From NCBI GenBank assembly GCA_965262145.1, contig OZ253501.1:1695366-1759365 (forward strand): DNA of 64,000 nt, in the 5' to 3' direction. The DNA is from Candidatus Latescibacterota bacterium (GTDB taxonomy: Bacteria; Latescibacterota; UBA2968). The notes under the pieces were generated by a model. The model was given only the letters and a program-made list of their open reading frames with translations, was not told where the DNA came from and did not search any database. Made by a program: the position numbers and the translations under genes. Positions 24,486-47,356 of this stretch are shown piece by piece (positions within the stretch are counted from its first letter, which is position 1; each line of letters begins with the position of its first letter).

Positions 24486-27272
24486 TTACTCCCATGTGTT
24501 GTTTGTAAAATCCAGTTGATTGGCGTTTTCGGATACGGCGCGTTTGATTTGATCTGGAACGCCATTGGGGAACTCTGCCTGTATTTCCAGCCGGACATCC
24601 ACCTGTGCTTGTGGGTCGCTTTGAAGAAGGCTGATGATTTCTTCGGCAATTTGTACAAGACGCATCTTTGCAACGGATGGATTTACATTCGCTGTGCCGA
24701 TGAATGTATGTATAGAAGTCTGTTCCTCTGGGGGGGGAGTCTCTTCGGGTGGTGGGGCAGGGGCGGGAGGACTGCCAGGGGGAGGGTCTGGGTCTATATC
24801 GGGATCAGGCGTTTGATTTTCAGCTTCGTATTGCTTTGCGGCTTCTGGTTCGATCAACAAGAGTGTGTCGTCGAGTTGTACATTTGCATCACCTAACTTG
24901 AAGCCATCGAATTTGCCATCGCTATGTCCATAAGCTGTACCAAAGAAATCTCGGCTGTCAGCCCCTGTCGCGATAACCTGAGCAAATACATCGCGATTTT
25001 TGAGGCGCGGAAGGTAGAGGTACTGCATCGTATCTTCCCAAAATACCATAGCCTCAATGGCGGGTTTATCGGGTTTCCAATAAAGCTCTTGTAGTCTGGT
25101 GCGAAGGTGAATAGGTGACCATGTGATAATTACCAGTTCGTTTTCCACGCATACGCGCTCAATTTCATTTCCCAATGGGGTGCCATGCGTGTTCAATGCA
25201 AATGCTTCGACAATGAGTTTGCGGTCTGTGGGCGTGTTTTGCACCGCACACAAAAGCCATTTATAACATTCTCGCGCAATTTGTGGGAGAACATCTTCGG
25301 CGGTTTGAAGCTGTTTTTGTGCCTGTTGGACCTGAAGCGTGTCCAGCACTAGGCGCATCTCAGATACATCTTCGACGATTGATTTCCAGGCCAAAGCCAC
25401 CCGAATACAATCGCGCAACCGCCCCAACAAACTATAATCTGGCGCGAGGAATACCAACCGATTGCCCCGGTACCTGGGTTTTGCACCGTGATTGCGCACA
25501 TAGTCCAGAATCGCTTCGGTTGAGAGCCGCGTTTCTTCACGAGAATAAAAATTTTCAGGCAAGAGATAGATCAGGCGCAATGCGCTGTCATCGGGAACAT
25601 CGGCATGGGGAGTAAATATGTGCTTGCCCTCGAAAAACGAGATGCCGGTTGACATTTTTTTCAGTACTTCGGCCAGCTTGCCGCGCACTTCGTTTTTGTC
25701 ATCAAAGCGTCTCTTGCGGTCTTCCATCTCGCGCCGAAGATTTGCTCGCGTATCAAACCAGAACCGCGTGACTTCTCGCGCTTTGTCGCCAGAACTGTTG
25801 AGATAATGCAAGCGATCCGATAGGCGATTGAGGGCGTCTGAATAAACCGAAGATGGTTGACCGGGTTGCAAACACCCCAATAGTACACGCGATCTATCGA
25901 GTCCCCGTGTGTTGGATGTTTGTACAGCAGAAGAAGGCGCACTCCCCAGAAAAAGCGTTCTTGCCACGCGGCGGGCAGCCTGAACAGCACCAAACCGAGG
26001 CTCTTTGTTTTCGAGTTCTGTTGTTTCTGCGCGTTCACCGTCTATGTCTCTTTCTATGACGGGATCCCAGCCCGCTGGCAAATAATAGGTCAATTCGTTG
26101 CGGGAGCCGCCATCGTACAGGGGCAAACTGCTGGGCAAAATCATCGTGTCTTTATTGTCGTCTTCCCATAACCGATAAATTACTTTGGCCATCAGTTTGA
26201 GTACGCCGCGCGTACGCTGGAACCCATCTATGGTAGCCCAATCTTCGTATAGCCGATCAAAGACTTCGGGGTGGATGGGATAGGCTTGTATCAAGCGGTC
26301 GAAATAGCGGGCTTCTTGTGTTTCTCCCGGTAGCTTTGCACCTTCGGCAACATACGCATCGGCATAAGCCCTGCAAACTGTTTCGCGGGTTTGTTCATCG
26401 GTGATGGTTTGGAATAAACGCCGCCTTACGATTTCAAATGCCTCTTCGGTTGCAACGGGCTTCCACAGGGCCTGTACGCGCCCAAATGTTTTTTCCAATG
26501 CACGCAAAGCCATGATCCCCCGGTTGCCACCTGCTTCCACTGTAGATTCGGGTAAGGATCCCAAAATCACGGCATTGGGTACTAATTTACACGCTTCTGT
26601 GAGGGCTTGAATAAATGACAAATTGCTGTCATAACTTCCACCGCTCAAATTTTGTCCTTCCTGAAATTGCCGAATATAAGCTACCAATTCGTCAATGAGG
26701 ATCACACAGGGTGCGTAAGTTTCCAGGAGTGTTTTTAGCACATCTTTGCCCGGTGATGTGCCATTTGCATCGGCTGCTTTGACAAGCTCAAATCCCTCTT
26801 TTTCCCCCAATTGGTAGGCGAGTTCACCCCACAATGTGCGAATGCCGTGTTTCCATGGCTGACCGGGTGCATGAGCCTGACCGTCTAAAATGGCAACCCG
26901 CGCTTTGGGTACGTCCATCATCCCGGCCTTGTCGAGCAGTGTTGGAATGCCCGCCAAATCACTCAATTCACAATTTCTCGTTGTGAGATGATAGACTGCC
27001 AATAGCGTGTGCGTTTTGCCGCCCCCAAAAGCCGTTTGCAATTGAATGACTGGCTCTCCACCTGTACCATTGAGCCGCTGCGCGACTTGCATCAGCAGCG
27101 TTTCCATGCCTTCTGTGATGTAGGTGCGCTGAAAAAAAGCAATGGGGTCTTGATATTCCCGCGTGGCTTCACCCTTGCGAACGGCTGTTATATCGGCGGC
27201 AAATTCCGATTGCTGAAACGTGCCTTCGAGCACATCGGGATGAGGAATAACGACTTCTCTCCAGGGTTTCAT
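24486..27272 (-). CDS. DUF499-family (BrxC-like) P-loop ATPase, component of a DUF499/DUF1156/SNF2 three-gene defence system
   Basis: Start '[14 protein letters not shown]…[11 protein letters not shown]' is typical of DUF499. Walker A '[10 protein letters not shown]'. Length ~928 aa. Confidence 0.75.
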
Positions 27273-27326
27273 AATACCTGCTCCGGTTGAATTTACTGTT
27301 CGGCCTTTGGGCAAGAGGGGCGTGGT

Positions 27327-30227
27327 TTATTCAAAAAGCCGTGATTGCACGGGTTCAGTCACAACTGCACTTTCAATGCCTGTCCAGCTTGTGACCAGTT
27401 CGTTATATGCTCGCGCATCCTCTGCCCATCCCTTGCGTTCACAAAGGGTGTAGAGACGATAAGCCAATTGCCGCGTGGCCCCGCGTTGGGACTTCACTGC
27501 TCCAAGTTGAGCACCGGCCACTGTTTCGCCCGATTGTTTTAATGTGCGAATCAAATGATGCAGGGTTTCCCAGATTGGGTTGCGTGAATCTGTGTGTGGA
27601 TTCCAATTGGTGGGATATTCAGACCACCTGTGCAAACGCACCTGCCCCCCGCCAGACGCAATGACCCCGGCATTTTCCACCCCATCGACACTTGTTCCCT
27701 TTGCGCGCGAAAGGGTATCTGCATCGCCATAGGGTCCCTCGCGCCAGCCGTATTGTTCAAACCAGTGCAAGCAGAATTGCGTATCGGCATCAAAATCGTC
27801 TTCAGCCAGGTACCGGTTGATAAGCTGAAGCGCTGTTCGCACGGGCATTGGTGTCCCATCGGCTTCAAGCACAGCCTGGTATTTGGAAAAAACAGCCATT
27901 CCCGGTCCAATGATGGCCTGAGACAAATCCACTGGTGCAACCGGAGACCGATCTTCACCGGCCCCTCGGGTCATCTCATCCAGTGCTTCTGGCAATACCG
28001 CATCTAACTCTCGCAAAAACTCTCGTCGAGAAATAACAGGTGCATCAGCAGAACGCTTTTTGCAAACGAGAATGATGCTGGAGGCGAGGGCATTGGTACC
28101 TGCTGCAATCTGGCGAGACTTCATTTCAGTACGCATCGGCCAGGTGCCCGAAAGCTGAAATCCTGCTTGATCAACAGCTTCTAAAAAGGTCTCCCAGCCG
28201 GTGGAAGTTGTGCCCCCGTTGGCTTTTTTTTCCGCCTGCTTGAAGGCATAGTAGATGGTAACGGGAAAACCGGGGTGTGCTTGCTCTGCCAGCCGTTGCA
28301 TCGCCTTTGTCATCCCGCCCATGAAGAATGCCTCTGCCTCATCATTACTGTTGTGGCGGTAGCGCATGGCAACCAATTCATCGGCCTTGGGCGTGGCGAG
28401 TGTGGCAAATAGGTCGGGAAATACCGAGCGTAGCGAACGGCGCAGCCAGATGTAGAAGAAGTCCGAAAGATCAGCGTAGCAGATGTTGTCGTAGTAAGGC
28501 GGATCGGTGGATATGATCATTCCATTTGACAAGTCCTGTGTCTGAGCGTCTGCCTGAACGGCAAAACCAGAAGTATTGATCTCAAGAGGAATACCCTTGA
28601 TCACTCCGGCAACTGAGATTTTGTAGTCACCTGCTGCACCTGCAAAGGGATTTACATCTGGGAAATCCCAAGTCATTGGAATGGCTTGGCGGGCGAATGC
28701 TGTCACGGTTTGTTCTCTTCCTGGTGTCCAACGTGCGATCGTACAAAGCGTGTTGCTCATGCGATCTACAGCAAAAGCCAGGTACACCCCCATCGCTTCT
28801 GCATACGCCGTTGCACCATTGCCGCCATCGCGCAGAGGGCTGTCGTCGTCAGGTAAACCGGCAGCGGTAGCATCGCGCTTGACTTGCTCCATTGCATCTT
28901 GTATCAGGTCGCTAAAAGTTGTGAGAGCGACGAGTTGGCGGGAGGTGAAAAGATCGGCCCATGTGAAGAAGCCGTAACCTCGGCCGCTAACCAAGTTGGG
29001 GGTATCGCGATTCATTGGTTCGTCCGGCTTCCACTTCGGTTTCGCCTCGTGTGCGATGGCTTCCATTTCCGGTGTAGGTGATAGGTACACCCGCCCGCGG
29101 TCGCCCGAGGCCACAATTGCCATGAGCCGTGCGCCCATGCGCCCGCCCATGCTCTCGGCCTTGATGTGGTTGCTCGACATCGGTGCGCCGGATAGCAAGC
29201 AACGGAAGGTTGACCCGCGTCCGAGTTTTGTTCCGGCTTTGGCTGCATCTGGATCCTTTGGCTTGCCTACTTTTAAGATGAAGTGATAGGCGTCTCCTTT
29301 GATGACTGGCTCTATGTAGGCTTCTTTTTTGTTCTTGGTGGAGAGCATAAAGGTCGAAATCAGGGGTACATCTACATGGGCAAAGGCCGGGTTTGGGCTT
29401 TTTACCGTGCGCGCCCACAGCCATGCGATGACTGTGAGTTTGCGTCCCGCGTACTGTTTCAGATCTGACCTTTTGGCGACCATCTCTTCTGTGATGGCGA
29501 TTTTTGGGTACAGATGGCCGATGCGTTTTTCGGCCTGGTCACGCATCCATTTGCCATAGTAGCGCACATCCTCGGCAAGGCCCGTTGCGCCTTTCCACCG
29601 CGCTTTTTGGGCGAGATTTTTCTGCATATCTGGGTTTACTGGCGGTCTGTTAGAAAATTTTGGTGGGATCTCGATCATTGCTTTGTTGATGAGCACAGCA
29701 ACGGGATTGAGGTCTGAGGCGTATGCTTTCAGGCCAAGGCGTTGCGCTTCCAGCGGGATTGCACCTCCGCCTGCAAACGGATCATGCAGGGCAGGGAGTT
29801 TGTCCGGGTTGAACAATTCGGCAGCCTGTGGGTGGTCTTTGTTGAGTTCACACACTTCTCGCCATGACCGACGGATCTCAACCCTTGCCTTTTCCAATAC
29901 TTCCTCGTTTGTGGTGTTTTCCCACCGTACGAGTTCTTCAATGATTTTGAATAGCCGTTTCCGCTCAATAGCGGCGTCCTTTTTATTCACGCCATATTTG
30001 AATCCGTCTCCTTGCTGGTATCCCGGGTCATTCACAAGCTGTGCAAAGATAACCGCGCGTGCCGCAGCAAGTGGTCGCCGTGCCCACCACAGATGCAGGG
30101 TGCTGGGGTGTCCATGTCGAATAGATTTTTCGCGTGCCGCTGCCGCGTTGATCGCGTCCAGAGGTAGCGCAACTTCAATGAGTTTCCTGGGTATTTTGAC
30201 ATTCTGATACATACCTGCTCGTTTCAT
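27327..30227 (-). CDS. DUF1156-family N6-adenine DNA methyltransferase
   Basis: DUF1156 N-terminal signature '[12 protein letters not shown]…[27 protein letters not shown]'. Catalytic motif IV 'DPPYYD'. ~966 aa. Start chosen at M15; M20 is also possible. Confidence 0.8.
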
Positions 30228-30272
30228 TTTGTGTGGGTGGTGGTTCCTGTTCGATTGGCAGTCTCTCAATGG

Positions 30273-30701
30273 TCATTCTTCAGGTAAGTTGGGACGCTCG
30301 CGCCAGCGCGAGGCATCTGCGAGTTCTTGTGCATGCCGCTTTTGTTCTTCCCTGTCTTCAGCTGTAAGCTCTGGTAGGCGAATATCCGCATGATACGGAT
30401 TATTATCGAGCGGAGAGGCAATGGCCTGCCGTCCATTGCAGTCAGCTTCCTCAGCGGTAAGGAAGGCCCATCCGTAGAAAGTGGCACTAGGTGTACGTGC
30501 TGCGCCTACATTATCAGCAATTGCAACTGCCTCTTTCGCTGGTGCGATACTGAGTCTGTCAACCGAAATGTCGGTTTGGCCCTCTTTTTCTAAAAAAGCA
30601 TTATGTGAGACTCTGGATCGCCGCGCACGCTTCGCCTCCCTACTTGAAAACATACTACGCCCGAGTTCCTCCGCCGGTGCGATGTTATTCGGAATATTCA
30701 T
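30273..30701 (-). CDS. Hypothetical protein (142 aa), cargo gene inside the defence island
   Basis: Open frame with good coding periodicity, 46 nt downstream of the lower-GC pair. I recognise no family. Confidence 0.4.
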   Translation of the reverse strand: MNIPNNIAPAEELGRSMFSSREAKRARRSRVSHNAFLEKEGQTDISVDRLSIAPAKEAVAIADNVGAARTPSATFYGWAFLTAEEADCNGRQAIASPLDNNPYHADIRLPELTAEDREEQKRHAQELADASRWRERPNLPEE

Positions 30702-30715
30702 GAAATTTTATCATC

Positions 30716-31423
30716 CTACTGATGCAACTCGATTAGAGCTTCACGCACAAAGCCGTCGGGAAGTGTACTGGTAGTGTCATAACGGGCGCGTCTATGATTG
30801 CCGTTCATGTTGACCAGACACAGCGCACCGCCTGCGGAATCGCATAGTAACAAAACTGACCGTCCGTGCCCGCCCGGAGCATCAATGGCAATCTCGCCAT
30901 CCGGTGTGGGATATACCTCGAAACGACGGGGTGAAATCAAGTACATCTCTCTCAACAAGCGCTCCGCATTTTCCAAAGCCATTTCGGATGGCACAGGGAA
31001 CCCTTCTTCAAGTGCTTCGTCCTTTGCCTCCTGAAGATCGTACAGTGCATCGTACAGTTCAGGATTGAGTGTCTTCTCAATTGCTTCGTAAAAATCACGG
31101 AATGCGTTGGCCCGTTCAAAGTTGTATGCCTTCGCAATTCGACTAATTAGAAGATTATAGATATCGGAACTCGATGTATCGGGTTCGATACTATAACTAG
31201 GCGAAAGCAATAATGTTTCTAAGTCTTTTGACTCTTTTGCAGGCTCATTTAAAATAGCCTCTAATATAGACTGACTATTAATTAGTCCCTCCTCAGTCTT
31301 GCTAATCCAATCTGTCGAATAGCCAAATATATTCATATCGTCCGGGGTAGTTCCGGTATCCGGACTATCTAATAGCCCGATGTTTTTGTACAGCATTAAT
31401 GTGGGAGAACTGAAAGTTGTCAT
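30716..31423 (-). CDS. Hypothetical protein (235 aa), lower-GC cargo gene
   Basis: 4-bp ATGA overlap with the upstream ORF. No recognisable motifs. Visibly AT-richer than the flanks. Confidence 0.4.
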   Translation of the reverse strand: MTTFSSPTLMLYKNIGLLDSPDTGTTPDDMNIFGYSTDWISKTEEGLINSQSILEAILNEPAKESKDLETLLLSPSYSIEPDTSSSDIYNLLISRIAKAYNFERANAFRDFYEAIEKTLNPELYDALYDLQEAKDEALEEGFPVPSEMALENAERLLREMYLISPRRFEVYPTPDGEIAIDAPGGHGRSVLLLCDSAGGALCLVNMNGNHRRARYDTTSTLPDGFVREALIELHQ

Positions 31424-32127
31424 GATTTAGACTCCTGGAAATTGAACTTTTTTACCAGCGCATCAAAATCAGATAAATCATTTTTCCACAATGTAAGAAT
31501 GTCTGAAATTATGTTGATACGGTCTTGCTGATCCATTGTTGATGGTATATCTCGATGAATATTTGCTTGAAACAGCATAATAGGGATTTCTGGATCATCA
31601 TTTTTTTTCTTCGTTGTTTCAGCGATATCCAAGACAATCTTTCTTGTGTCATATTGATATATCGTTTTCAAATGAACCTCCGGTGTAACGTCCTTGAATG
31701 ACATCTCCGCACTTTTGATTAGGATATTAGAAACTTTTTCTGGAACTTCAGCAGATAAATACCTGTAACCTTTGGGATTGATACCAATAGCACTATAAGG
31801 GACATGAGGCACTTTCTCCATATAACGTTTCGCTATTTCCGGACACAGAATATCTTCTGGCGCCAAAGAGTCTCCCGTTTGCAGAAAAGTTACGCGATCA
31901 GGTAACGCCTGCACGATGATACCTCTCTCAAATTTCACTTGCGAAAAGAGCGGACTTGAAATTGGATTACCTTGCAGCGACAGGTCGGCATTCACGATTT
32001 CATTGTGACGCAAAAAGTCCGGGTTAATGATTGAGGGATTGTTTGACTGAGCAACTAAAACAACAGCAACCTCACCCAGTTTAACGCTCTTATCACTTTT
32101 TTCGTCCAGCAATTTCTCCTGTGTCAT
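31420..32127 (-). CDS. Hypothetical protein (235 aa), lower-GC cargo gene, first gene of a two-gene operon
   Basis: Open frame, translationally coupled to 30716..31423. Its own upstream intergenic region (32128-32279) carries an imperfect palindrome. Confidence 0.4.
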   Translation of the reverse strand: MTQEKLLDEKSDKSVKLGEVAVVLVAQSNNPSIINPDFLRHNEIVNADLSLQGNPISSPLFSQVKFERGIIVQALPDRVTFLQTGDSLAPEDILCPEIAKRYMEKVPHVPYSAIGINPKGYRYLSAEVPEKVSNILIKSAEMSFKDVTPEVHLKTIYQYDTRKIVLDIAETTKKKNDDPEIPIMLFQANIHRDIPSTMDQQDRINIISDILTLWKNDLSDFDALVKKFNFQESKS

Positions 32128-32279: not shown

Positions 32280-32762
32280 TCAGCTCAGCACTTGTGCCAG
32301 AGAGGTCCCACATTTAATTCTCTGAACGATTACTGATCTCCCGCGAAACTGGACTTTGTTGGACTTGTTTCTCAGTCGTCTTTGCTCAATTTTCGAAATC
32401 CTACCCGATGCAACAACCGGGGTAAAATTCGTATTTGCGTTATGTGGAATAATCTGATTGGCGACATCAGCACCAGCCTGAAGTTGCTTTGCGACCGCAC
32501 TGGCACTGACCCCACCTGATTTCAGTTCTATGGGTACGGTCCACGGACTTCCATCTGTATCGTCTAAATATCCGAGAAACAGGTAGTCGCATCGCGTTTC
32601 ATGCTGGCTCGGAGGTGAACTGGGAGAATCCATGTGGATCAGGACGAATTGACGCGAAACCCCCTTGAGAAAAATCGAACACTTTCCCGCTCTACACTGC
32701 TTTCTCAGGCATCGAGCATCCAATTTCCCTCGTACCGATTCCATCATCGTCATCTGGTTCAA
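32280..32762 (-). CDS. Small putative PD-(D/E)xK-like nuclease / Cys-cluster protein, partner of the AAA_21 ATPase
   Basis: 160 aa. 'LIHMD…CDYLFLGY…PIELKSG' fits a D…D…ExK arrangement. N-terminal CxxxxCxxxxC. ATGA overlap with the ATPase stop. Confidence 0.35.
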   Translation of the reverse strand: MNQMTMMESVRGKLDARCLRKQCRAGKCSIFLKGVSRQFVLIHMDSPSSPPSQHETRCDYLFLGYLDDTDGSPWTVPIELKSGGVSASAVAKQLQAGADVANQIIPHNANTNFTPVVASGRISKIEQRRLRNKSNKVQFRGRSVIVQRIKCGTSLAQVLS

Positions 32763-34291
32763 CTTTCCTCAATTCGGTTGGAGATTGTTGCCCAATCGTT
32801 GTGGGTACCAATCGCAATGTCGTCATAATCAGATCGGAATCCACCATAATCCACATCAAGGGGCATCTCCTTCACTATCGAACCCTTGGGGCGTTTTTTT
32901 GGCTCGAATAGCCAGGCGCCTACCTGGTCGGGACTGAGCGCGTAATCCGCCCCACCGACCCCTTTTCTCCGAGATTCAGGTAGATCGGATAGACGTACCA
33001 AGTTAGCGAGTTCTTCCAGTACCCATTCGCTATGTGTGGTAATGATGACCCGTATGCCGGAACGCACCGCCGCAGCGAGGTGCCGAATGAACGCGACCTG
33101 CATTCCGGGGTGTAAGTGGGATTCGGGTTCTTCGATGATCAGGACTTCCCCAGGGGAGACGACATGGCGCAGGTACAATACGACGGGCGCGAGTTCCGAT
33201 ACCATTGACGAAGTATTCATCAATTGCATGTCTTCTTTCCATCCTGTTGGTTGGTAGGAAAATACCGGGTAGCCAGTAGATGAATTTTCGATGCGAATTG
33301 ATCCACTCAGGATTTCTTTTTCGAGACGTTGGGTGAGATTCTCATTTAGCCTTTTCTTTTTCCTTGCCAAATCGCCCAAGTCAAGGAGTTGTTCGATGAA
33401 GTCGGCGAGAACGCCAGACAACTCAGGTAATGCTCGTTCGGGGCGAAGACCCGCACGCGACGCACCTTGGATCAAAGAACCTACGACGACTTTGTGCGCG
33501 TGCATGACGCCCGCGCGGTCTGCGGGGAGATAATAGGCAGGCCGACTCATTGGATTCGCGAAGTAAGAAACGACGTTACCAAAAAGGTTATCTATCAATG
33601 CAGCCGCCGCCAAAAACCTTCTTTCTCTACTATCTGGCCATTTTGGTTCGAAATTTTTTATTCGGGATGTGATTTGGATATACTCCTCAATGGCGCCTTT
33701 TCCGATCTGCAAAGGTGCTGTGTCGGGAATTGAAGCGATGAAAGCCTTTTTTGTAATATTGAATTTATACAATGAACTGTTGTTGTACCTCGCTTCTGAT
33801 GAGCCTGGCGTTTTTGAAAGTAGAGCGACCTTCGCGCTTTCCTTATTTGCATGGCGAATAAGCTTTCTGGTCTCGTCAATACCAAAACACCGCATTATTT
33901 CAGGGGCGAGATCATCGCCGAGGAGAACATCACTGAGCATAGGACGGATCAGCGATGCAATTACGTCTGGTACAGGAAAATCCTCTGACGAACCCTTTAT
34001 TTTCATTTGCGAAACGATTTGGTCCGCTCCGTCAATCAAACGCGCGATATTTTCCTCGGATATCGCCTGCTCGTATAATAAACCTCTACGAGAAGAAAAA
34101 TAAGGACGTCTTGTTGTCCTGCGGCTATTAAAAAACTTATGCAGCGCGTAGATCAAAATCGCCAGATAAGATTTTCCCGTATTGCTCGGTCCGACAAATA
34201 CGGTGAGTGGGCGCAGTTCGATTTCTGCACTATAAATCGGTCCGAAATCCCTGACCGATAGCATCAGATTTCTGTTTTCTGATGTCGCCAT
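32759..34291 (-). CDS. AAA_15/AAA_21 (OLD/ABC-like) ATPase of abortive-infection-type two-gene modules
   Basis: Walker A 'GPSNTGKSYL'. Walker B / H-loop 'VLIIEEPESHLHP' … 'ITTHS'. ATG 34291 is preceded by AGGAGG. Confidence 0.75.
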   Translation of the reverse strand: MATSENRNLMLSVRDFGPIYSAEIELRPLTVFVGPSNTGKSYLAILIYALHKFFNSRRTTRRPYFSSRRGLLYEQAISEENIARLIDGADQIVSQMKIKGSSEDFPVPDVIASLIRPMLSDVLLGDDLAPEIMRCFGIDETRKLIRHANKESAKVALLSKTPGSSEARYNNSSLYKFNITKKAFIASIPDTAPLQIGKGAIEEYIQITSRIKNFEPKWPDSRERRFLAAAALIDNLFGNVVSYFANPMSRPAYYLPADRAGVMHAHKVVVGSLIQGASRAGLRPERALPELSGVLADFIEQLLDLGDLARKKKRLNENLTQRLEKEILSGSIRIENSSTGYPVFSYQPTGWKEDMQLMNTSSMVSELAPVVLYLRHVVSPGEVLIIEEPESHLHPGMQVAFIRHLAAAVRSGIRVIITTHSEWVLEELANLVRLSDLPESRRKGVGGADYALSPDQVGAWLFEPKKRPKGSIVKEMPLDVDYGGFRSDYDDIAIGTHNDWATISNRIEES

Positions 34292-34320
34292 TGTTGCCTC
34301 CTCTGAATATCCTGGATGGC

Positions 34321-35103
34321 TTATTGGGCAGGTGTACCTTTTTGGAGCAACGTTTTTAGATCGAAGTTGACAGATGAAACGCCCCAACCTGGTTCGGTGT
34401 CAAAGGGGTTGCGAATATAATAGGGGCCATCTACGGTGTCGTCTTCATCCACGAGTACAATCGCGAGTAAGAATTTGTTGGCTTGATTGAGTGCATAAAG
34501 GATTTCATTACGAGATATAGTCACGGTGGTTGCACCTTTCACACGGCCTTTCACTTCTATGTGTCGAACTTCGTTGGTTACTTCATCATCAACGGTGGTA
34601 TAAGATGTGATATCCCATCCGCATTTCTGTGCCGAAACATCTATGACGCGACATCCGCGTTGTTTTTCCACTTGAATTACAGTATCCATTGCAATGCGTT
34701 CAATACGCGCGCGTGCCTGTGCATCAACAGCAAAAGTGGATTTCCCTTCTTCTGGTAGTTCGCCGCGCAATTTGCGAAGTAAGCCCACGGGAACGACGAG
34801 CGCACCTCCAAGGGCAACGGGTGTCGCAGATGTGACGTGCCGCATGGCCTGGAGTTCCTTTTTTCGATTTTCCAAACGTCCTTCAAGATCGCTCACCATA
34901 CGTCTTGCTCTTTCGAGAGGGAGGCGCACGTCTTTACCCATTTCTGCGTCTTCTTTGAGTTTGAGCCAGCGGTCCGACAAAAATTCGATTTCTCTGGTCA
35001 AGCGTTCATGAACAGCGGCGAGGGTCTTATCTACCCCGAAAAATTCATAAAATCTGAGAAATTGGCGTAAATACTGGACTTCCCAGTTATTGCATCGAAA
35101 CAA
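34321..35103 (-). CDS. DUF3883-like restriction-endonuclease-fold domain protein (stand-alone), encoded in-frame downstream of the SNF2 helicase
   Basis: C-terminal '[19 protein letters not shown]…[11 protein letters not shown]…' is a PD-(D/E)xK-like core (D…E-V-K) typical of DUF3883. TTG start. Confidence 0.5.
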
Positions 35104-35157
35104 ATATTTTTGGCCTAAATTTCATAACCATTTGTAAAAAATAAAATTATGGAAATT

Positions 35158-37986
35158 TTAAGCAAATTCATGAATTAGTCGGGCTACATGTTCAATCCGT
35201 CGTTGGGCTACTTCTCCATAATGTTCGGGCACCAGTGTTTCGGCGGCTAATGCCAATGCGCGTTGTTCATGATCTGTACAAATCCACGGTTCAGCGAGCA
35301 CATCTTTGAGCAAGTCGCGGTCACCATCTGAAATGGGTTCTAAATCGAGATGTGGTGCCCATCCTGCAAAAGCAGCAGAACCGTCGGGCGCAACACGTAC
35401 AAATTGTAAGCGTTTAGACAATGTCCTGTCAACATCTCCTTTGATTTCATGTGTGAGTAGAAAAAGCAAATGGGGTTCTATGCCTTCATCGGTGGGATCG
35501 ACGAGCACTGTACCTTGCCGTAGCAAATTGCCGTGACGCTCCAACAATACATCGCTGGCAGCCAACATCAACGGATGGCCGGGGTGCAACATCGCCGCGA
35601 AAGGCGCATTGGGCTTATCAACGAGACGAACAGCCTCTTTAGTAAAGCAGACTCGTTCGTATTTTTTCAGTACGGGCGCTATATCGCGACGGTTACGACC
35701 CGTTATCATTCGGTCTCGATCCCGAATTGCAACAGGAACATGTGTAATTTCAAAACGGGCAGCTTCCCGTTGATAAATAACGCCTCCTAAGGACTCAAAA
35801 GCTTTTAAGAAAAAGGAACGCACAAAATAGGGCTGAAGTCGTCTGGCCTCGGCTTTTTCCATTTCTTCTTTGACCGCAAAGAGGCGTTCGGGATGCATTG
35901 TTTCTTTTGCAAGTGCGTTGCGGTGGAGAATAGCGAGTATGTGTTCGCGGTCAAAGGCGTGATCGACCTTTTGATTCAAGCTTGCCCGGATTTCGGGCTG
36001 ATCGCCATATCTGATCGCATTAAGCAAAAGGTCTTTCAGGCTAACGCCTTCAAATACTTCGCCCAAAATGTCAAATACCCGACCTTGTAGAGCCGAACTC
36101 TCAACTTCCAGTTTTTGCAAAAGCCGGTGATACACATCGCCTTCACGGGTCTCTCTGGCTACCAGATTCCAAAGATGACATACATCTTGTTGTCCAATGC
36201 GATGTATGCGCCCAAAACGCTGTTCCAGACGGTTGGGATTCCACGGCAAATCGTAATTCACCATCAGATTGGCATTCTGAAGGTTCACGCCTTCTCCGGC
36301 GGCATCTGTTGCAACGAGGATACGCACTTCGGGGTCGGAGCGGAACCGAGCCTGGACGCGCAAACGCTCGTCGTGTTGAATACCACCGTGAATGGTGACG
36401 ACTGAATTGGGATTCCCCAGCACACCTGCAATTTTATTTTGCAGATAGTTGATGGTATCGCGGTGCTCAGAAAAAACGATCAGCTTGCGCAAATTTCCAT
36501 CTGTATCGCGTATAGCCTGGTCCTGCTGCAAAATGCGCGAAAGCTCGTCCCATTTGCGATCTCGCTCGGAATGCACAACTGCTTCGGCCTGATTTTCCAG
36601 TTTTTTTAAAATATCTATTTCTTGCGCCAATTCTGTAACTGTCCGTGCAGCAGTCGCCTGATCTACAAGTGTCTCTTCCAGATTTTCTTGCTCTTCGGCA
36701 TTGAGTTCATCGTCGTCTTCGGGAATGTCCGCAAGAAGCTCAGCAAGATTTTTTGGCTTGTGCATACCCAATTTTTCTTCGCGCAAACGGCTTTCCAATC
36801 GTTCTTTTCTGCGCTTAAGCGACTGGAAAATTGCTTCGGGACTCGAGGCGAGACGGCGTTGTAATATTGTTAATGCAAATCCAACTGAGCCTTTGCGTTT
36901 GCTATCGAGTTGATCTGCCTTGCCCATTTCAGTTTGCACATAGTGTGTCACTGCCTCGTAAAGCGTGGCCTCAATATCCGAGAGTGTATAATTTACCGTA
37001 TATGCTTTGCGTTCGGGAAATAACGGTGTGCCATCAAACTTAAACATTTCCTCTTTGACCATTCGGCGCATCAAATCCGAGTAATCGACTTTGTGAACTC
37101 CATCTCGAAATTTACCATAAAATCGGTCTGAATCCAGCAATGAGAGGAAAAGCTGAAAATCTTCTTCTTTGCCGTTGTGGGGCGTTGCCGTTAGGAATAG
37201 AAGATGCCGTGTGTGCTCACCTACTTTTTCCGCTAAAAGAAAGCGTTTTGTGCGTTCAATTTCGCGTCCATAAAAATGTGCCGAAAGTTTATGCGCTTCA
37301 TCAAAGACTACCAGATCCCAGGGTTCAAGACACAGTTTTTGTTGATAGTCTTCATTGCGTGCCATCTGGTCGAGCCGGACAATGAGATGATCGTGGACTT
37401 CAAATGGGTTGCGGCCAGGAGAAGTGGCTTCGAGTTCTTTTGAAAAAATGCGAAATTCCAGACCGAATTTTTCATACAACTCATCGCGCCACTGTTCAAC
37501 GAGATTCCCGGGTGCTACAATTAGAATACGGCGTGCATCTGCACGCATAAGCAATTCGCGGATGTAGAGGCCCGCCATAATGGTCTTCCCCGCACCGGGA
37601 TCGTCAGCCAGAATATAGCGCAGGGGTTGCCGGGGTAGCAGGGACTCATAAACTGCTGTTATCTGATGTGGAAGTGGCTCCACATTTGACGTGTGGACAG
37701 CCATCATCGGATCAAAGAGAAAAGCCAGATCAATACGTTTGGCTTCGACCGCGAGTTTAAAGGCTTCGCCATCCCCATCAAATGACCATGGACGCTCCTG
37801 TGTGGCAAGCGCAATATTTTCCTCATCCGCTCGATTCAGCAAGCGTTCTTTGAGCGTGCCATCGGGTGTTTTGTAGATAAGCGTTACAGAATCTTCAGTA
37901 ATGGGTATTACCGCGACGACAGAGACAACACTTGACGGTTCAATACCCACAAGGGAGTTACCCACAGATAAGTCTTCGATTCGCAT
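35158..37986 (-). CDS. SNF2-family helicase of the DUF499/DUF1156 defence system
   Basis: Motif I 'DDPGAGKT', motif II 'VVFDEAHKL', motif VI '[11 protein letters not shown]'. Start chosen at MRIEDLSV (ATG 37986). The ORF stays open up to 38094. Confidence 0.8.
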
Positions 37987-38126
37987 TAAAATACCTTTAT
38001 TAACAAATTCTATAGCAATCAGCGCATAGGCGTAGCTACGCCACAACGATAGGAATGACAACAAAAAAACTTTCTGGATCGCGGCTAAAACCATGCCGCG
38101 ATGACGGCTCTACAGCGCATGATTCG

Positions 38127-39815
38127 CTAACCGCTTTCGCTATGGCCCGTGAGGCGTATATCTTCCACCAGCATTTGCACGTTGGTTCTGCCTTGCCAGG
38201 TATTGGCCTGTAGTGCAAAGGCGAGATCGACGCGGTCGCCCAGTGATAATTCGTAAACCCGTTCGCCCTGGCGAAACCAGATTGCATCGCACAGATCAGC
38301 ACCTGTATCCACGCTGAGTTTCAGATGCGCCCCGCGGCTTATGGCGCGCGCATCTGCAATTCGGCAATTGCGGGCTATAAAACGCGGCAACGCGTTCTTT
38401 GCACCAAAAGGTGCCAATTTGTCCAGGGCGTCAACTGTCGTCAGAGATATATCGGATGGTTTAAGTGCCACATCGACTTCTAATTGGGGCGTCAGTGCTT
38501 CCTCTGATAGCCGCGCTTGAGCATCTGCGATCAACCGGTCTTGAAATTCGAGATAATTTTCAGCGGGGACTGAAAATCCGGCGGCATCGGCGTGTCCACC
38601 AAATTCGGTGAGCAAATCTGAGACGCGGAAAATCGCCTCGACGATATTGTATCCACCTGTTGTGCGCGCAGAACCCGTATAGATGCCATTTTTTCGAAAG
38701 TTGGTACACACCAGCGCTGGGCGCGAAAATTTTTCGACCAATCGCCCGGCGATCAGCCCGACCACACCCAGATGCCAGTCTTCACCACGCACCACCAGAA
38801 TGCGATATTGATCCAACCAGTTATCCTCTACCATGCGTTCTGCTTCGGCTATACCGTCGTTTTGCAGAGCCTGTCTTTCGCCATTTAGACCGTTTAATTC
38901 TTCGGCGAGTTTTGCCGCCTGTCCCCGGTTTTGACAGCGCAACAAATCGAGTGCCAGATCGGCCGATGATAGGCGCCCGGCGCTGTTGATGCGCGGTCCC
39001 AGGAAGAATCCAATAGAGATCGTGTCAACGGGGCGGTTGGTCGTACCCGCGACGGCTTTGAGTGCCTGCAAGCCCGGTCGCTCGGTGGTATTGAGGACCT
39101 GCATCCCCTTTCGCGTAAGCAGGCGATTTTCTGCAACCATGGGGGCCATATCAGCCACAGTGCCCAATGCGACGAGATCCAAAAGCGAGTTCAAATATCG
39201 GCGGCGTTCTGAATTGGGCAGGAACTCGGATGCCAGAGCCTGTACTACCTTAAATGCCACCCCCACGGCAGCCAGTCCCTTGAAGGGATATTCGCAGTCT
39301 GCGCGATTGGGATTCACCAGTGCCAGGGCGTCTGGCAATTTGTCTTGTGGATGGTGATGGTCAATGACTACCACATCAATTCCGGCGTTATTGGCAGTGT
39401 CAACAGCCTCAAAAGATGAAATACCATTGTCGGCAGTTACAATGAGTTGTGCTCCCCTGTTGAGTGCCCTCGTCACACCCGGCGGTTTCATGCCATACCC
39501 ATCTCGGAACCGGTCGGGCAACAAAAATGTGGCATCGGCACCCACCATATCAAAAAAATCGAGCAAAACAGCGGTGCTCGTGACGCCATCTACATCGTAA
39601 TCGCCAAAAACCACAATGCGCTCTTTATTGTGAATGGCTTCCGAAATGCGTTCAACTATGCGGTGCATGTCTTTCATTAAATAGGGGTCATTCAAAATAT
39701 CGGGAGAATCGGCCAAATCCTCTATTTTCAGTGAACGGTTTGCGAGAATGACATCGGCAATAGAATGATAATCGCCCTTATGGCGTATGTTCCATATCGG
39801 GTATTTAGGCTCCAT
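38127..39815 (-). CDS. recJ: Single-stranded-DNA-specific exonuclease RecJ
   Basis: DHH motifs 'VFGDYDVDGVTS', 'VIDHHHP'. DHHA1 region 'GGHADAAG'. Confidence 0.85.
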   Translation of the reverse strand: MEPKYPIWNIRHKGDYHSIADVILANRSLKIEDLADSPDILNDPYLMKDMHRIVERISEAIHNKERIVVFGDYDVDGVTSTAVLLDFFDMVGADATFLLPDRFRDGYGMKPPGVTRALNRGAQLIVTADNGISSFEAVDTANNAGIDVVVIDHHHPQDKLPDALALVNPNRADCEYPFKGLAAVGVAFKVVQALASEFLPNSERRRYLNSLLDLVALGTVADMAPMVAENRLLTRKGMQVLNTTERPGLQALKAVAGTTNRPVDTISIGFFLGPRINSAGRLSSADLALDLLRCQNRGQAAKLAEELNGLNGERQALQNDGIAEAERMVEDNWLDQYRILVVRGEDWHLGVVGLIAGRLVEKFSRPALVCTNFRKNGIYTGSARTTGGYNIVEAIFRVSDLLTEFGGHADAAGFSVPAENYLEFQDRLIADAQARLSEEALTPQLEVDVALKPSDISLTTVDALDKLAPFGAKNALPRFIARNCRIADARAISRGAHLKLSVDTGADLCDAIWFRQGERVYELSLGDRVDLAFALQANTWQGRTNVQMLVEDIRLTGHSESG

Positions 39816-39979
39816 AAAATCTCCAGAGTGGTTGATTATAGTGAGTATATGCGATCTGTGCTTGACTTGAAGTCAATTTGAACGTTAATTTTTTGAAACC
39901 AATATTTCACTTGGGAATCTCATAGGCTGAACGGTGGATCAATTTTACACCTTCTGCTAACCGCTTTCAGGAGTTTAAA

Positions 39980-40375
39980 ATGTCAGAATATTTCAATACA
40001 GTCAAATCTTATCTTCAAGACCTCAATCTCGCGGTTGACGAGGAAGATACCGCTGAAGAACTCGTTGTGGTGAGTGACGAAGATCGCGGTATCAATCACC
40101 TCATTGTCGATTGTGAAGATCCCATCCTCATTATTGAGCAGGCCATTCTGCCCATTCCCAACGTTCCTGGCGACCTGTACAAAAGGTTGCTCGAAATGAA
40201 TCGCACACTTGTTCACGGGGCGTTTGCCCTCGATGAGGAGATCGGTACGGTTCTTTTTCGCGATACCTTGCGCCTCGATACCCTCGACCGATCTGAGCTT
40301 GAAGGCTCGATTACCGCGCTCGAACTCGCCCTGGCCGAAAATGCCGCAGAATTACTCGAATATAGCCATCAGTAG
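39980..40375 (+). CDS. YbjN-like (putative sensory-transduction/chaperone-fold) protein, PspA-associated
   Basis: 131 aa, acidic, YbjN-like length and pattern. Family call by gestalt and context only. Confidence 0.45.
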   Translation: MSEYFNTVKSYLQDLNLAVDEEDTAEELVVVSDEDRGINHLIVDCEDPILIIEQAILPIPNVPGDLYKRLLEMNRTLVHGAFALDEEIGTVLFRDTLRLDTLDRSELEGSITALELALAENAAELLEYSHQ

Positions 40376-40424
40376 CCAGTTGTACTACGTTAGACCGCTG
40401 ACCACTTTCTTAAAGGAGTATCTT

Positions 40425-41761: not shown

Positions 41762-43333
41762 CTATTCAACTCCCCATTCCGATTTTCGATAGTATCGATC
41801 TACTGTCGGTTCCATTTCTGTGCTGACATCAATCGCGTGTTTTTCTTCAAACATGCCCTTCCAGAAGTGCAACATTCCCCGCATCGTTTCCGCATTCAAA
41901 AATTGCGTTTCAATATCCTCAAAAGTGAGTTGCCGCATTCGGCGACTCAGATCCTCTTCGCGCATTCCCTGTGTTTTCATCCCCAGTACCCATCCCCAAT
42001 CGCCCATCGTTGGTATATAGGTGTGATAGGGTATTGTCGAAAAGCCAGCGTCTGCCATCGTGCGCTCAATACAGAGAAAAGCAAGACGCGCGTTAAAGGG
42101 ACTCGACGCCTGGGTTACCAGCACGCCATCGGGTGTTAGGTGACGCGCACACAAGCGATAAAATTCCCGCGAATACAATCTGGCGAGGTCTGGTCCTTTG
42201 GGATCGGGTAAGTCGATGATGATGATATTGAACAACGCATCTGAACGCGCCAGAAATGCGCCCGCATCGCCGATTACCACATTTACACGCGGGTCGTCCA
42301 GTGCCCGCGCATTCGCTTCCACAAAAACCGGGTGTGTTCGCGCCAGATCGATTATCGCTTCATCTAAATCTACAAGCGCAATCGCTTTCACATCTGCATA
42401 TTTCGCGACTTCGCGCACAGCCAGTCCATCCCCTCCGCCTAAAATGAGTACGTTATTCCGCGATCCCGATAGTTTCATGGCCGGATGTACCAGCGATTCG
42501 TGATAGCGTTCTTCGTCATAGGTGCTGAATTGCACGTTGCCATTTAAGTGCAGCCAGTGGTAGCCTTTCCATTCTGTTATGACAATGCGTTGATAAACGG
42601 TTTGATCTTGATAGACCACGCGATCGCGATACCGACTTTGCTCGCCCCATATTACAATGGGACGGATATAAATTCCCAGTACCAGAAGGCCCGCGCCCAG
42701 AATCCAGAATGCCGTCAATAGCCGCCGGCGACGCGCCAATAAGTGTCGATATTGCCACAGTAATACCGATGCCACGATAAAGTTAATCGCGCCCAATACC
42801 AGTGGTGTGTACGTCAGACCCAATTTTGGCAATAAAAAAAAGGCGAACAATAGTCCGCCGATCAATGCGCCAAAATAGTCTTTTTCCATCACTGAGGCGA
42901 TATTGGTGCTCAAATCCTGGTACGCTTCGTTCATGCGCGCTACCAGCGGAATTTCCATGCCGATTAGCACGCCGATTGCAAAGGCATAGCCATAGATAAA
43001 AACGCCTGCCGACAACACAAATGCCGATCCAAAATACGCCGCAACCGCACAGGTGACGCACAGAGCCGAGAGATAAAATTCGATTGCGATAAAGCGATCC
43101 AGCAATCGATCTGTCAACAATCGGCTCCACCGGCTGCCCAGGCCCATGGCAAATAACATCAGCGACATGAGCATCGCCCACTGCAATGTCGTATTGCCCA
43201 ATAGATAGCTCGCCAGTGTTGATAGCGTAAATTCCGCTACTATGCCCGAGCATCCCGTGGCGAATATACAGGCTTTTAAGAGATAGCTTTGACGCATACC
43301 AAAATAATAAAAATAACTCGGAGGGCTGAACAC
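41762..43333 (-). CDS. Membrane-anchored polyamine aminopropyltransferase (spermidine synthase fused to N-terminal polytopic membrane domain)
   Basis: ~7 TM N-terminal domain, then SpeE motifs 'VLILGGGDGLAVREV' and 'IIIDLPDP'. Confidence 0.8.
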   Translation of the reverse strand: MFSPPSYFYYFGMRQSYLLKACIFATGCSGIVAEFTLSTLASYLLGNTTLQWAMLMSLMLFAMGLGSRWSRLLTDRLLDRFIAIEFYLSALCVTCAVAAYFGSAFVLSAGVFIYGYAFAIGVLIGMEIPLVARMNEAYQDLSTNIASVMEKDYFGALIGGLLFAFFLLPKLGLTYTPLVLGAINFIVASVLLWQYRHLLARRRRLLTAFWILGAGLLVLGIYIRPIVIWGEQSRYRDRVVYQDQTVYQRIVITEWKGYHWLHLNGNVQFSTYDEERYHESLVHPAMKLSGSRNNVLILGGGDGLAVREVAKYADVKAIALVDLDEAIIDLARTHPVFVEANARALDDPRVNVVIGDAGAFLARSDALFNIIIIDLPDPKGPDLARLYSREFYRLCARHLTPDGVLVTQASSPFNARLAFLCIERTMADAGFSTIPYHTYIPTMGDWGWVLGMKTQGMREEDLSRRMRQLTFEDIETQFLNAETMRGMLHFWKGMFEEKHAIDVSTEMEPTVDRYYRKSEWGVE

Positions 43334-43420
43334 CCGCCGAGTTGGAGAGATTTAATCAGGGAATTTCACAGTGCGATAGCAGTGTCTTTTGGGGTTTCGC
43401 CATCCACACAACTTCCCTTC

Positions 43421-44266
43421 TCACAAACTCCACACAATCAGGAACGACGCGCCGATATAAGATGTGGCTTCGATGAAGCCTGCGGCCAAATTGGGGTGTT
43501 CTTGATTGGCGATTTCATCGGTCAGTTTTTGTCCTGGCAAGAGAATCACATCGGAGATGAATCGGGCGATGGGTAGCAGTATTAATCCCGCGATTACTTC
43601 GATTGCAAAATCCTGTAGATTTACGGTCCATGAAATAAAATCACCCGCCGATGCGTGAAATACTATAATGCCAATGCCGACCAATGCGCCCGCAAAAGCG
43701 ACGCCTGCCGCGACATTGTCTTTTTCAATTTCGTCGTGAATACTATACGGGGTAATCCATTCGTACACCAGCCCGGCCAGTATCAGGGCGGCCTGGCCCA
43801 ATGCCCAGAAAATCACTGTTGTTACAATTCCGCCTATCTCACCGGATACCGCACCAAAAATCACTAATCCCGTTGCAATATACGACGCGGCGACTACAAC
43901 ACCTGTGCCCGCGTTTTGATCGTCAATCAATTCATCCCGCACTTTGAATCCGTGTAAGATCAGCCCGTCGTTGACCAGACGCGATAGATTCATCAACAGG
44001 ATAGAAAGCACTCCGTAAATGCCGATGTCGATCAAATCGTTTTCCAATCCTTGGGATGGCCCCGACAAGGTGCCGCCAATAGCCATTACCAATCCAAAAT
44101 AATATCCCGCCATGGCCACACCTAGTGCTGCGTTGTCTTTTTCGACCAGTTCATCCCGCACGCTGTAACTCGATGTCGTCAAATCCTTGACCAATTTGCC
44201 GAGCCAGAACAATATAAACGCGCTAATGAGATAAATACCCGTTGCAATCAAATCTTGTCCAATCAT
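43421..44266 (-). CDS. DUF350-repeat membrane protein (E. coli YjfL-like)
   Basis: Three or four repeats of 'DEL…(K)DN.A.G…AG…G' with flanking TM helices. Confidence 0.65.
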   Translation of the reverse strand: MIGQDLIATGIYLISAFILFWLGKLVKDLTTSSYSVRDELVEKDNAALGVAMAGYYFGLVMAIGGTLSGPSQGLENDLIDIGIYGVLSILLMNLSRLVNDGLILHGFKVRDELIDDQNAGTGVVVAASYIATGLVIFGAVSGEIGGIVTTVIFWALGQAALILAGLVYEWITPYSIHDEIEKDNVAAGVAFAGALVGIGIIVFHASAGDFISWTVNLQDFAIEVIAGLILLPIARFISDVILLPGQKLTDEIANQEHPNLAAGFIEATSYIGASFLIVWSL

Positions 44267-44994
44267 TTTCCAAACCCTCCAAAACTACGGCTGCCAAATC
44301 CAGATCGGCTGCGGCTTGTCGAACGCGAGCTTCCAAATCCGCTGCGACTCTGGCTCGTGCGACTTTGCACTTTTTGTGTGAACGATTGTCTCTTTTGCGC
44401 TATGTTTGCCTGGCGTCGCTGGAATGTCGATGGTTTTTGTTTTTGCGTGACAGATCCCTGCGTGCCGTACTCCCGATTGCGCCCATAATACGGGCGTCGA
44501 TCCTGGCGATAAGACCGATAATCGTCGTAATCGTAGCGACTCATGCCGAACCCGCCGCCCCAACCGAGCAAACTTCGCATCATCGCGTATTGCCCGTAAA
44601 ACTCCCAGAACGATGTGCCTCCGCGATTCGTCCATTGTCCGTATTGTGGATTGCCCACATAGTGGTATCCGGGCGGATGTGGCGTATTGTTGACGCCATC
44701 TTGCTTCGATTTGGCAATCAGCGCCATTCCCAAAAACGGTTCGTATTTTCGATAGATGGACTCCGATACTTCTATCCAGTCCGATTGTACCTTTTTTTCG
44801 CCCTGTGTAATTAAATACCGATGATAATACGAGGTAAAAACAGTGCCTTCTTCACGTATATCATCCAACACAATCATATACGCCGGTGCCGAGGCCAGCG
44901 ATTTCTGCATCTCAACTACGGGATCGCGTTTACCGCCGCACCCGCACAACAACAGAAGGCCGATCAACAAGACCGGCAATCGTTCTCGTGTCAT
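44263..44994 (-). CDS. Lipoprotein with Gly/Ser/Arg-rich C-terminal tail (possibly YjfM/DUF1190-like)
   Basis: Lipobox 'LLLCGCGG'. 4-bp overlap with the DUF350 gene. Confidence 0.5.
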   Translation of the reverse strand: MTRERLPVLLIGLLLLCGCGGKRDPVVEMQKSLASAPAYMIVLDDIREEGTVFTSYYHRYLITQGEKKVQSDWIEVSESIYRKYEPFLGMALIAKSKQDGVNNTPHPPGYHYVGNPQYGQWTNRGGTSFWEFYGQYAMMRSLLGWGGGFGMSRYDYDDYRSYRQDRRPYYGRNREYGTQGSVTQKQKPSTFQRRQANIAQKRQSFTQKVQSRTSQSRSGFGSSRSTSRSRSGFGSRSFGGFGK

Positions 44995-47353: not shown

Positions 47354-47356
47354 GTC

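Follow-up and report, generated by a model that had tools for sequence, protein, structure and literature searches.

The window analysed here, a 64,000-nt stretch of DNA, carries on its minus strand the genes of Hma (helicase, methylase, ATPase), an anti-phage defence system that received its name from PADLOC (Payne et al. 2021, PMC8565338); its HmaA protein was studied in Halomonas meridiana by Liu et al. (2024, PMC11232893). As in known Hma systems, three genes run in the same direction and encode an SNF2 helicase with a C-terminal NOV_C/DUF3883 domain (hmaA), a DUF1156 methyltransferase (hmaB), and a DUF499 ATPase (hmaC). Unlike in known systems, hmaA is cut at codon 934/935 by a 149-bp element, and no one polypeptide contains both the helicase and the nuclease. 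The locus comprises the following features:

24486..27314, minus strand: hmaC, DUF499 ATPase (PADLOC HmaC profile positions 3-940 of 941, E = 0); appears intact
27327..30269, minus strand: hmaB, DUF1156 methyltransferase (PADLOC HmaB profile positions 2-957 of 967, E = 0; Pfam DUF1156 and MethyltransfD12); appears intact
32759..34291, minus strand: AAA_15/AAA_21 ATPase gene (Pfam) inside the hma operon; best PADLOC match PD-T4-4_A, E = 1.3e-36
34321..35031, minus strand: 3' part of hmaA, codons 935-1170 and stop; helical linker and NOV_C (DUF3883) PD-(D/E)xK nuclease (PADLOC HmaA profile positions 943-1170 of 1176, E = 1e-98)
35031..35034, minus strand: right target-site duplication GTAG (DNA alignment and BLAST overlaps)
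35035..35183, minus strand: MITE, 149 bp, 29.5% GC; minus strand 5' CCCGACTAATTCATGAA ... TTTATGAATTTTTCGGG 3'
35122..35124, minus strand: second in-frame stop TGA, within the element; also present in the copy at locus L006
35158..35160, minus strand: premature stop TAA, within the element; ends the truncated helicase
35184..35187, minus strand: left target-site duplication GTAG (DNA alignment with syntenic loci; 4-bp subject overlap in each BLAST pair)
35184..37986, minus strand: 5' part of hmaA, codons 1-934 of the ancestral 1170, including the left GTAG copy (PADLOC HmaA profile positions 2-946 of 1176, 1625 bits, E = 0)

The 5' part of hmaA lies in a 978-codon minus-strand ORF (38094..35158) that ends with the TAA at 35160-35158, and the 3' part in a minus-strand ORF that runs from a TTG at 35103 to a stop at 34323-34321. 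Both share one reading frame (35158 - 34321 = 837 = 3 x 279), and the TGA at 35124-35122 is a second in-frame stop between them. This arrangement of ends, start, frame, and stops, described earlier from the letters alone (hereafter, the sequence-only reading), was verified throughout. The helicase ORF matches the Pfam families SNF2-rel_dom, ResIII, DEAD, and Helicase_C; together with the PADLOC HmaA score, these matches show that the core features of the helicase are present, and two of its motifs are legible in the translation. The 3' ORF matches NOV_C (formerly DUF3883) with E = 1.4e-20, and its nuclease domain looks intact, with a legible D...EVK motif. There is no solved structure of HmaA, and the best structural match, RapA, covers the helicase core only. 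The likely start of hmaA is the ATG at 37986 (MRIEDL...), the listed ORF beginning 36 codons upstream at 38094; with the start at M37, coverage by 1170-aa homologues is 100%. The present helicase product consists of 934 native residues and an element-encoded 8-residue tail, ARLIHEFA. The protein collection lists this 978-aa product as P0122, from two contigs.

The ATPase gene embedded in the operon has a likely start at ATG 34291, preceded by GAGGAGG, and together with a 160-aa ORF (32280-32762) it probably constitutes a separate two-gene defence module. In this respect too the locus resembles known Hma operons, many of which are reported to contain an AAA ATPase and an unannotated partner between hmaA and hmaB (PMC11232893).

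The sequence-only reading had described the gap between the two ORFs as a 54-bp AT-rich spacer. The 54 bases and their AT-richness are as described, but the foreign stretch itself is 149 bp long; the GC content is 27-28% over about 35050-35199, compared with about 45-52% to either side of it. When the DNA was aligned with the syntenic loci L001 and L002, 153 bp proved to be inserted at CAY-GTAG-ATAAR, bounded by GTAG at both ends. The element is absent from eight related loci (L001, L002, L009, L011, L013, L015, L016, and L018), and the BLAST matches to all of them are interrupted at 35034/35184, the two subject segments overlapping by 4 bp in every case. The insertion adds exactly 153 bp, and no coding sequence was lost. 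Deletion of the element and one GTAG yields 3513 nt and restores an HmaA of 1170 aa that aligns without gaps to its counterparts at L011 (98.7% at the amino acid level), L009 and L015 (96%), and L001 (94%), the intact L011 allele being located on a syntenic contig. Whether the spacer replaces coding sequence or is an insertion, a question raised in the sequence-only reading, is thus settled in favour of an insertion.

All 120 homologues among the matches listed are fused proteins of 1166-1224 aa with a query coverage of 99-100%, and the two ORFs match consecutive stretches of one PADLOC HmaA profile (2-946 and 943-1170). The earlier statement that this helicase normally bears a C-terminal nuclease domain is borne out by these data and by the published description of HmaA (PMC11232893): the ancestral gene had the hallmark of HmaA, helicase and C-terminal nuclease in one polypeptide, while in the present allele two stops lie between them. 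A natural two-subunit design conserved in the family, one of the options raised earlier, is disfavoured because the listed homologues are fused and the eight related loci are uninterrupted; a split conserved together with its spacer was not seen in the homologues.

The inserted element has the properties of a MITE (miniature inverted-repeat transposable element). It is short (MITEs being below about 300 bp), non-coding, and bounded by imperfect terminal inverted repeats that start with CCCGA, 15 of the first 20 terminal bases being complementary; it is flanked by a target-site duplication, and the empty site is found in relatives; and its three copies occupy unrelated sites and share no homology beyond the repeat ends, although the copy number looks low. 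Each of the six frames contains at least two stop codons, so the element cannot be translated throughout. Its RNA folds as a long hairpin (-40.7 kcal/mol, z = -2.57), and an Rfam scan of 34700-35500 for known RNA families gave only two sub-threshold snoRNA chance matches. The final 8 codons of the upstream ORF come from the element, and the downstream ORF owes its first 24 codons to the element together with the right GTAG copy. The shared frame of the two ORFs follows from the length of the insert (153 bp, or 51 codons), a one-in-three chance rather than a designed feature.

The best explanation, to which we assign a probability of about 0.9, is a very recent insertion of the 149-bp MITE at codon 934/935 of hmaA, most likely creating a loss-of-function allele. 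A non-autonomous element has landed in an intact fused gene and duplicated the 4-bp target GTAG; the inserted stops truncate the helicase after residue 934 and leave the nuclease (residues 935-1170) as a frame-matched remnant. Since the target duplications of the family follow the IS5 motif YTAR, the element may have been mobilised in trans by an IS5-like DDE transposase. Among the options of the sequence-only reading, the evidence supports a pseudogenised fusion, by a mechanism which that reading had not recognised. The two ORFs should be annotated as one interrupted hmaA and not as a variant of Hma with two genes in its place; otherwise, programs that look for defence systems would either overlook this one or assign it a wrong architecture.

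Codon-level comparison of the 3' part with the intact L011 allele gave dN of 0.0019 and dS of 0.0059, with 2 differences in 708 nt (about 0.3%). The insertion is very recent, since the 3' remnant is nearly identical to the intact allele and has not decayed. Decay of the 3' part was considered, because BLAST identity had seemed lower downstream, and was rejected when the codon-level comparison placed the drop in the neighbouring ATPase gene.

Phage protection was demonstrated only for the Halomonas HmaA, against T4, and this defence depends on the helicase domain as well as on the NOV_C nickase (PMC11232893). The interrupted gene is probably a loss-of-function allele, because the nuclease is essential and neither a ribosome-binding site nor a promoter can be recognised for the remnant. 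In 34800-35400, a search for sigma-70-like promoters and for terminators found none, and no Shine-Dalgarno-like motif precedes any in-frame start of the remnant, while such motifs are present in 10 of the 13 neighbouring genes. The hmaA gene itself has no Shine-Dalgarno motif; its absence is therefore no proof that the remnant is untranslated. The hmaB and hmaC genes and the embedded ATPase module probably stay intact, and the locus would be a fresh case of a mobile element knocking out an immune effector with its methyltransferase and ATPase partners left in place.

In sister strains, hmaA has been repeatedly disrupted by IS5-like elements, an IS3-family element, and deletions; at L013, for example, the gene is broken by an IS5-like element. 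Because related strains have the gene IS-broken or deleted, this pattern suggests that hmaA is costly or counter-selected in this lineage. Defence genes, cas genes among them, are known to be inactivated by inserted IS elements and MITEs (Sheng et al. 2023, PMC10359306). The present locus resembles those cases in that a mobile element lies in an immune effector gene and several independent events have hit the same gene in related strains; it differs in that the target is hmaA of Hma and in that only the pattern of hits points to selection for loss. The repeated hits were also counted as support for an on/off switch at the population level, or a domain-splitting event, affecting a costly effector of the abortive-infection type. 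Since the insert consists of 149 bp and a 4-bp duplication and is in frame, precise excision would restore hmaA exactly; alternatively, helicase and nuclease might act as separate subunits. In both cases mobile elements would modulate Hma immunity in this lineage; we nevertheless consider such a role unlikely.

Also unlikely is a functional split, in which the helicase (residues 1-934) and the linker with the nuclease (935-1170) are made separately, the latter from TTG 35103 or an internal start, and assemble in trans. The two ORFs are intact and share a frame, and the insertion lies in the helical linker about 110 residues upstream of NOV_C, so that both domains are physically whole; moreover, the isolated C-terminal region of HmaA nicks DNA in vitro (PMC11232893), and some genes here, hmaA included, have no Shine-Dalgarno motif. 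However, the integrity of the ORFs is uninformative, since a divergence of about 0.3% from the intact allele leaves no time for selection. In addition, none of the 120 best homologues is split, the candidate starts have neither a promoter-like site nor a ribosome-binding motif, the element is an ordinary mobile sequence that also occurs in non-coding DNA at other places, and the same gene is outright destroyed in sister strains.

The view that the stops or the whole AT-rich stretch are errors of a long-read metagenome assembly is very improbable. The source does appear to be a long-read metagenome-assembled genome, and the L018 contig and the cluster member P0128 have frameshift-like truncations that could be read errors, but the stretch ends in inverted repeats and is flanked by a perfect duplication of its 4-bp target, and the stops are not sequencing errors because the same bases occur in the 100% identical copy at a different locus (L006) in an independent assembly. 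Errors arising at random would not create such a structure.

Programmed recoding, either by readthrough of both stops, as proposed earlier, or by a ribosome hop from GTA to an identical GTA across the element, like the translational bypass in phage T4 gene 60, is the least credible: the long hairpin of the element RNA and the identical in-frame GTA codons on either side would suit it, but the matching codons arise automatically from the 4-bp duplication and the 153-bp insert, the first stop lies 9 codons past the would-be take-off site rather than next to it, the 153-nt gap is three times that of gene 60, readthrough would have to suppress two different stops (TAA and TGA) 36 nt apart in a mobile element whose six frames all contain stops and would burden the protein with 51 foreign residues, and identical copies are located in non-coding DNA.

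The insertion of a MITE is further supported by its other copies. The L006 copy is identical at 149 of 149 positions, and the L026 copy at 140 of 149 (94%); both have flanks unrelated to those in hmaA and duplications of their own, TTGA and TTAG, respectively. These other copies lie in non-coding DNA. The GTDB species representatives and the JGI metagenomes each yielded a single matching copy, and the family looks low-copy. When metagenomes were scanned with 36 nt from inside the element, no match was obtained; a scan with the repeat-core pattern gave 20 loci. A sister family of 160-161-bp elements has the same repeat core and inserts at YTAR sites; in the two families together, 20 elements have perfect 4-bp duplications, 18 of which fit YTAR, and the family-wide target motif is CTAG/CTAA/TTAG. 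In the element's own family, two of the three copies (GTAG in the window and TTGA at L006) are each one base off YTAR. A 2-bp TA duplication of the IS630/mariner type was rejected, because the flanks CTAA, TTAG, and TTGA would then give inconsistent element ends.

IS5 generates 4-bp YTAR duplications (PMC5009759; PMC10359306). Like bacterial MITEs mobilised by IS5-type transposases, the element is small, AT-rich, and without coding capacity, with inverted repeats and a hairpin-forming RNA, and it has a 4-bp target duplication and a family-wide motif that fits that of IS5. Unlike them, its site in the window, GTAG, deviates from YTAR by one base, and no parent IS was found in the searched sets. 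IS5 repeat ends start with GG or GA, whereas the repeat ends of this MITE start with CC. A search for the repeat in the window (23 nt, 3 mismatches) found only the element itself and no parent, and in the 40 fetched loci only the MITEs themselves matched the repeat core. The IS5-like element at L013 was tried as a parent and rejected, its ends GAAGCTGTTTTAAAA being unrelated to the MITE repeats; the IS5-like insertions in the hmaA genes of sister strains have ends unrelated to those of the MITE. Two repeat matches in viral contigs, both within ORFs and without a partner repeat, were taken as chance, because about five chance matches are expected by a rough estimate. BLAST of the plasmid collection with both MITE types gave no match, and the repeat CCCGA(A/C)NAATTCAT(G/A)AA was not found in the searched literature, the plasmid collection, or Rfam; with its clear YTAR preference, this MITE group is a small addition to the catalogue of transposable elements in bacteria.

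Rickettsia palindromic elements are in-frame palindromic elements that remain translated within genes. The element in hmaA resembles them in being a short inverted-repeat sequence inside a protein-coding gene, with an inserted length (here 153 bp) that is a multiple of three; unlike them, it interrupts translation, having stops in every frame.

The hmaA gene (SNF2 helicase and NOV_C nuclease) of the anti-phage system named Hma by Payne et al. 2021 (PMC8565338) is split in the window into two ORFs by an inserted miniature inverted-repeat transposable element (MITE), lying between codons 934 and 935.

38094..35158, minus strand: helicase ORF, 978 codons, TAA at 35160-35158
35124-35122, minus strand: second in-frame stop, TGA, between the two ORFs
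35103..34321, minus strand: NOV_C ORF, 260 codons, TTG start
35035-35183, minus strand: 149-bp element, delimited by alignment and BLAST breakpoints
35031-35034 and 35184-35187: 4-bp target duplication GTAG flanking the element

The two ORFs share one frame (837 = 3 x 279); Pfam domains SNF2-rel_dom, ResIII, DEAD and Helicase_C were found in the first, the second matched NOV_C (previously DUF3883), and GC content is 27–28% across about 35050-35199 versus 45–52% on both flanks. The ORF list, Pfam and GC profile thus bear out the sequence-only reading of a helicase and a DUF3883 ORF in the same frame, separated by two stops and an AT-rich gap. On its 5' side, the open frame continues for 36 codons (37987-38094, minus strand) beyond the true start of hmaA (MRIEDL, ATG 37986). 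The truncated 978-aa product is on public record in NCBI and ENA (P0122, carried by a 6.18-Mb contig) with the upstream ATG, whereas the calls for intact homologues are 1170 aa long. Close relatives of the window proteins come from sources named Gemmatimonadota and Candidatus Latescibacterota MAGs.

For the protein search, 51 codons were taken out, giving a repaired product of 1170 aa. All 120 matches listed were fused helicase–NOV_C proteins of 1166–1224 aa, the best of which, P0001, has exactly 1170 aa (94% identity, 100% coverage). It is encoded at L001 (GCA_022827565.1), a syntenic locus carrying RecJ, hmaA, an AAA_15 ATPase, two small genes and DUF1156. DNA alignment of the window with L001 and L002 revealed a single clean 153-bp gap between CAC and GTAGATAAA, and in the window GTAG flanks the inserted stretch on both sides. 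In BLAST of the window against all fetched loci, eight of them (L001, L002, L009, L011, L013, L015, L016 and L018), where this site is uninterrupted, gave alignments that break at 35034/35184, with subject coordinates overlapping by 4 bp at each break. The inserted unit therefore consists of the 149-bp element and a 4-bp target duplication; no gene sequence was lost, and the alignment to full-length fusions identifies the spacer as an insertion, not a replacement of coding sequence. Inverted arms were located at 35029-35051 and 35167-35189 by repeat search. A single PADLOC HmaA profile of 1176 positions is matched by the helicase ORF (2-946) and the NOV_C ORF (943-1170).

The repaired hmaA aligns gap-free to four intact alleles and shares 98.7% protein identity with that of L011, a sister contig; its 3' part (708 nt) differs from the L011 allele by dN 0.0019 and dS 0.0059. 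This near-identity indicates a very young insertion, and the intact downstream ORF says nothing about selection. The fused-nuclease feature of HmaA is missing from the window gene only because of this recent event.

The truncated product comprises 934 native residues followed by ARLIHEFA, and the nuclease part (residues 935-1170) would need a new start to be made. No sigma-70-like promoter or terminator was found in 34800-35400, and a Shine-Dalgarno-like motif, which precedes 10 of the 13 neighbouring genes, is absent before every in-frame TTG, ATG and GTG candidate of the 3' part. HmaA by itself defends E. coli against T4, and neither the helicase domain nor the NOV_C nickase is dispensable for this defence (Liu et al. 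2024, PMC11232893). The window allele would thus be expected to be null for HmaA defence. That separate helicase and nuclease pieces still function seems very improbable, even though the break falls in a helical linker, some 110 residues ahead of NOV_C, and the C-terminal region on its own can nick DNA in vitro (PMC11232893). Among the readings offered earlier, pseudogenised fusion was right, transposable-element insertion being the mechanism; a natural two-subunit arrangement as the family design is contradicted by the fused matches and the eight empty sites, and programmed readthrough is unsupported. Each of the six frames of the element contains two stops or more.

The element (29.5% GC) fits the structural definition of a MITE. 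It is predicted to form a long hairpin (-40.7 kcal/mol, z = -2.57), and an Rfam scan of its region gave no match. Scanning one genome per species, and also metagenome contigs, with the shared repeat core (CCCGANNAATTCAT followed by ATGAATTNNTCGGG, 106-136 bases apart) recovered a 149/149 identical copy (L006) in non-coding DNA of Candidatus Latescibacterota chromosome OZ244960.1, bordered by TTGA on both sides, and a 140/149 identical, TTAG-flanked copy in a metagenome contig (L026). In a three-way alignment of the copies, similarity begins and ends exactly at the repeat ends. The scan also revealed a 160-161-bp family (repeat CCCGAACAATTCATAAA), with 17 members in metagenome contigs, besides L003 and L004, which the scan of one genome per species had yielded.

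L003, L004, L021-L025, L027-L032, L034-L040: 160-161-bp MITE family, repeat CCCGAACAATTCAT(A/G)AA, CTAG/CTAA/TTAG duplications

Members of this separate family turn up in MAGs of Wenzhouxiangella and other Gammaproteobacteria and in many metagenome contigs; it has the repeat core in common with the window element, not the interior, and the literature searched contained none of its repeat strings. Perfect 4-bp duplications of both families (n = 20) were CTAG (9), CTAA (6), TTAG (3), GTAG (1, window) and TTGA (1, L006). A 2-bp TA duplication is excluded by the non-palindromic duplications. Of these 20 duplications, 18 fit YTAR, the target reported for IS5 (PMC5009759; PMC10359306), those of the window and L006 being off by one base each; this target preference suggests an IS5-like transposase as the mover; no autonomous partner with matching ends was found in the window, fetched loci, plasmid collection or viral contigs. 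Two further pattern matches, L005 5821-5979 and L033 3450-3583, lack target duplications, the latter being an almost perfect palindrome of 134 bp within GC-rich sequence; both probably lie outside these families. That IS elements and MITEs insert into the effector genes of immune systems is already known (PMC10359306). The novelty is modest: the disrupted hmaA and the MITE family, which appears to be uncatalogued, are both of known kinds.

The hmaA region (window 34321-37986) was compared in ten contigs, L009-L018, syntenic to window 24000-50400 and sharing an identical YbjN-like neighbour.

L009, L011, L015: intact, 1170 aa
L013, L016: cut into 222-, 501/528- and 411-aa pieces by IS5-like (DUF4096 + DDE_Tnp_1) and DUF772 elements
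L017 (short contig): 222-aa piece and adjoining IS copy only
L012: replaced by an IS3-type element
L010, L014: missing along with hmaBC
L018: 1092 + 122 aa, possible frameshift or read error

The breaks in L013 and L016 occupy two or more sites, other than that of the window. Inactivation of hmaA recurs among these closely related contigs, and the window MITE allele is one further independent event.

The remainder of the operon is arranged as follows.

32280-34291, minus strand: ATPase (AAA_15/AAA_21; best PADLOC match PD-T4-4_A) and 160-aa unannotated partner
30273-32127, minus strand: three co-oriented ORFs of 142, 235 and 235 aa, between the ATPase module and hmaB
27327-30269, minus strand: hmaB (DUF1156 methyltransferase), PADLOC profile matched end to end
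24486-27314, minus strand: hmaC (DUF499 ATPase), PADLOC profile matched end to end

The hmaA–hmaB interval thus holds one ATPase gene, probably starting at ATG 34291 after GAGGAGG, and four small ORFs. Liu et al. (PMC11232893) describe inserts of this type, an ATPase with an unannotated partner, for roughly two thirds of the hma operons. The pair is kept, at only 85% identity, in strains without any hma genes (L010, L012, L014); the two genes probably form a defence module of their own within a variable island. For the 142-, 235- and 235-aa ORFs, neither Pfam nor PADLOC gave a match, and they differ in length between sister loci (140/222/240, 142/273/235).

Identity to sister contigs falls sharply 3' of hmaA (32763-35034 versus 35184-40400), for example from 98.6% to 93.3% for L011 and from 95.4% to 84.9% for L009. 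The drop affects the ATPase gene and spares the 3' part of hmaA, which points to recombination or cassette exchange within the operon. Gene order is kept in all sister contigs at 41762-49479, a stretch whose products include a serpin, two PhyH dioxygenases, a sulfatase, a spermidine synthase-like protein, PspA and a DUF4178 protein.
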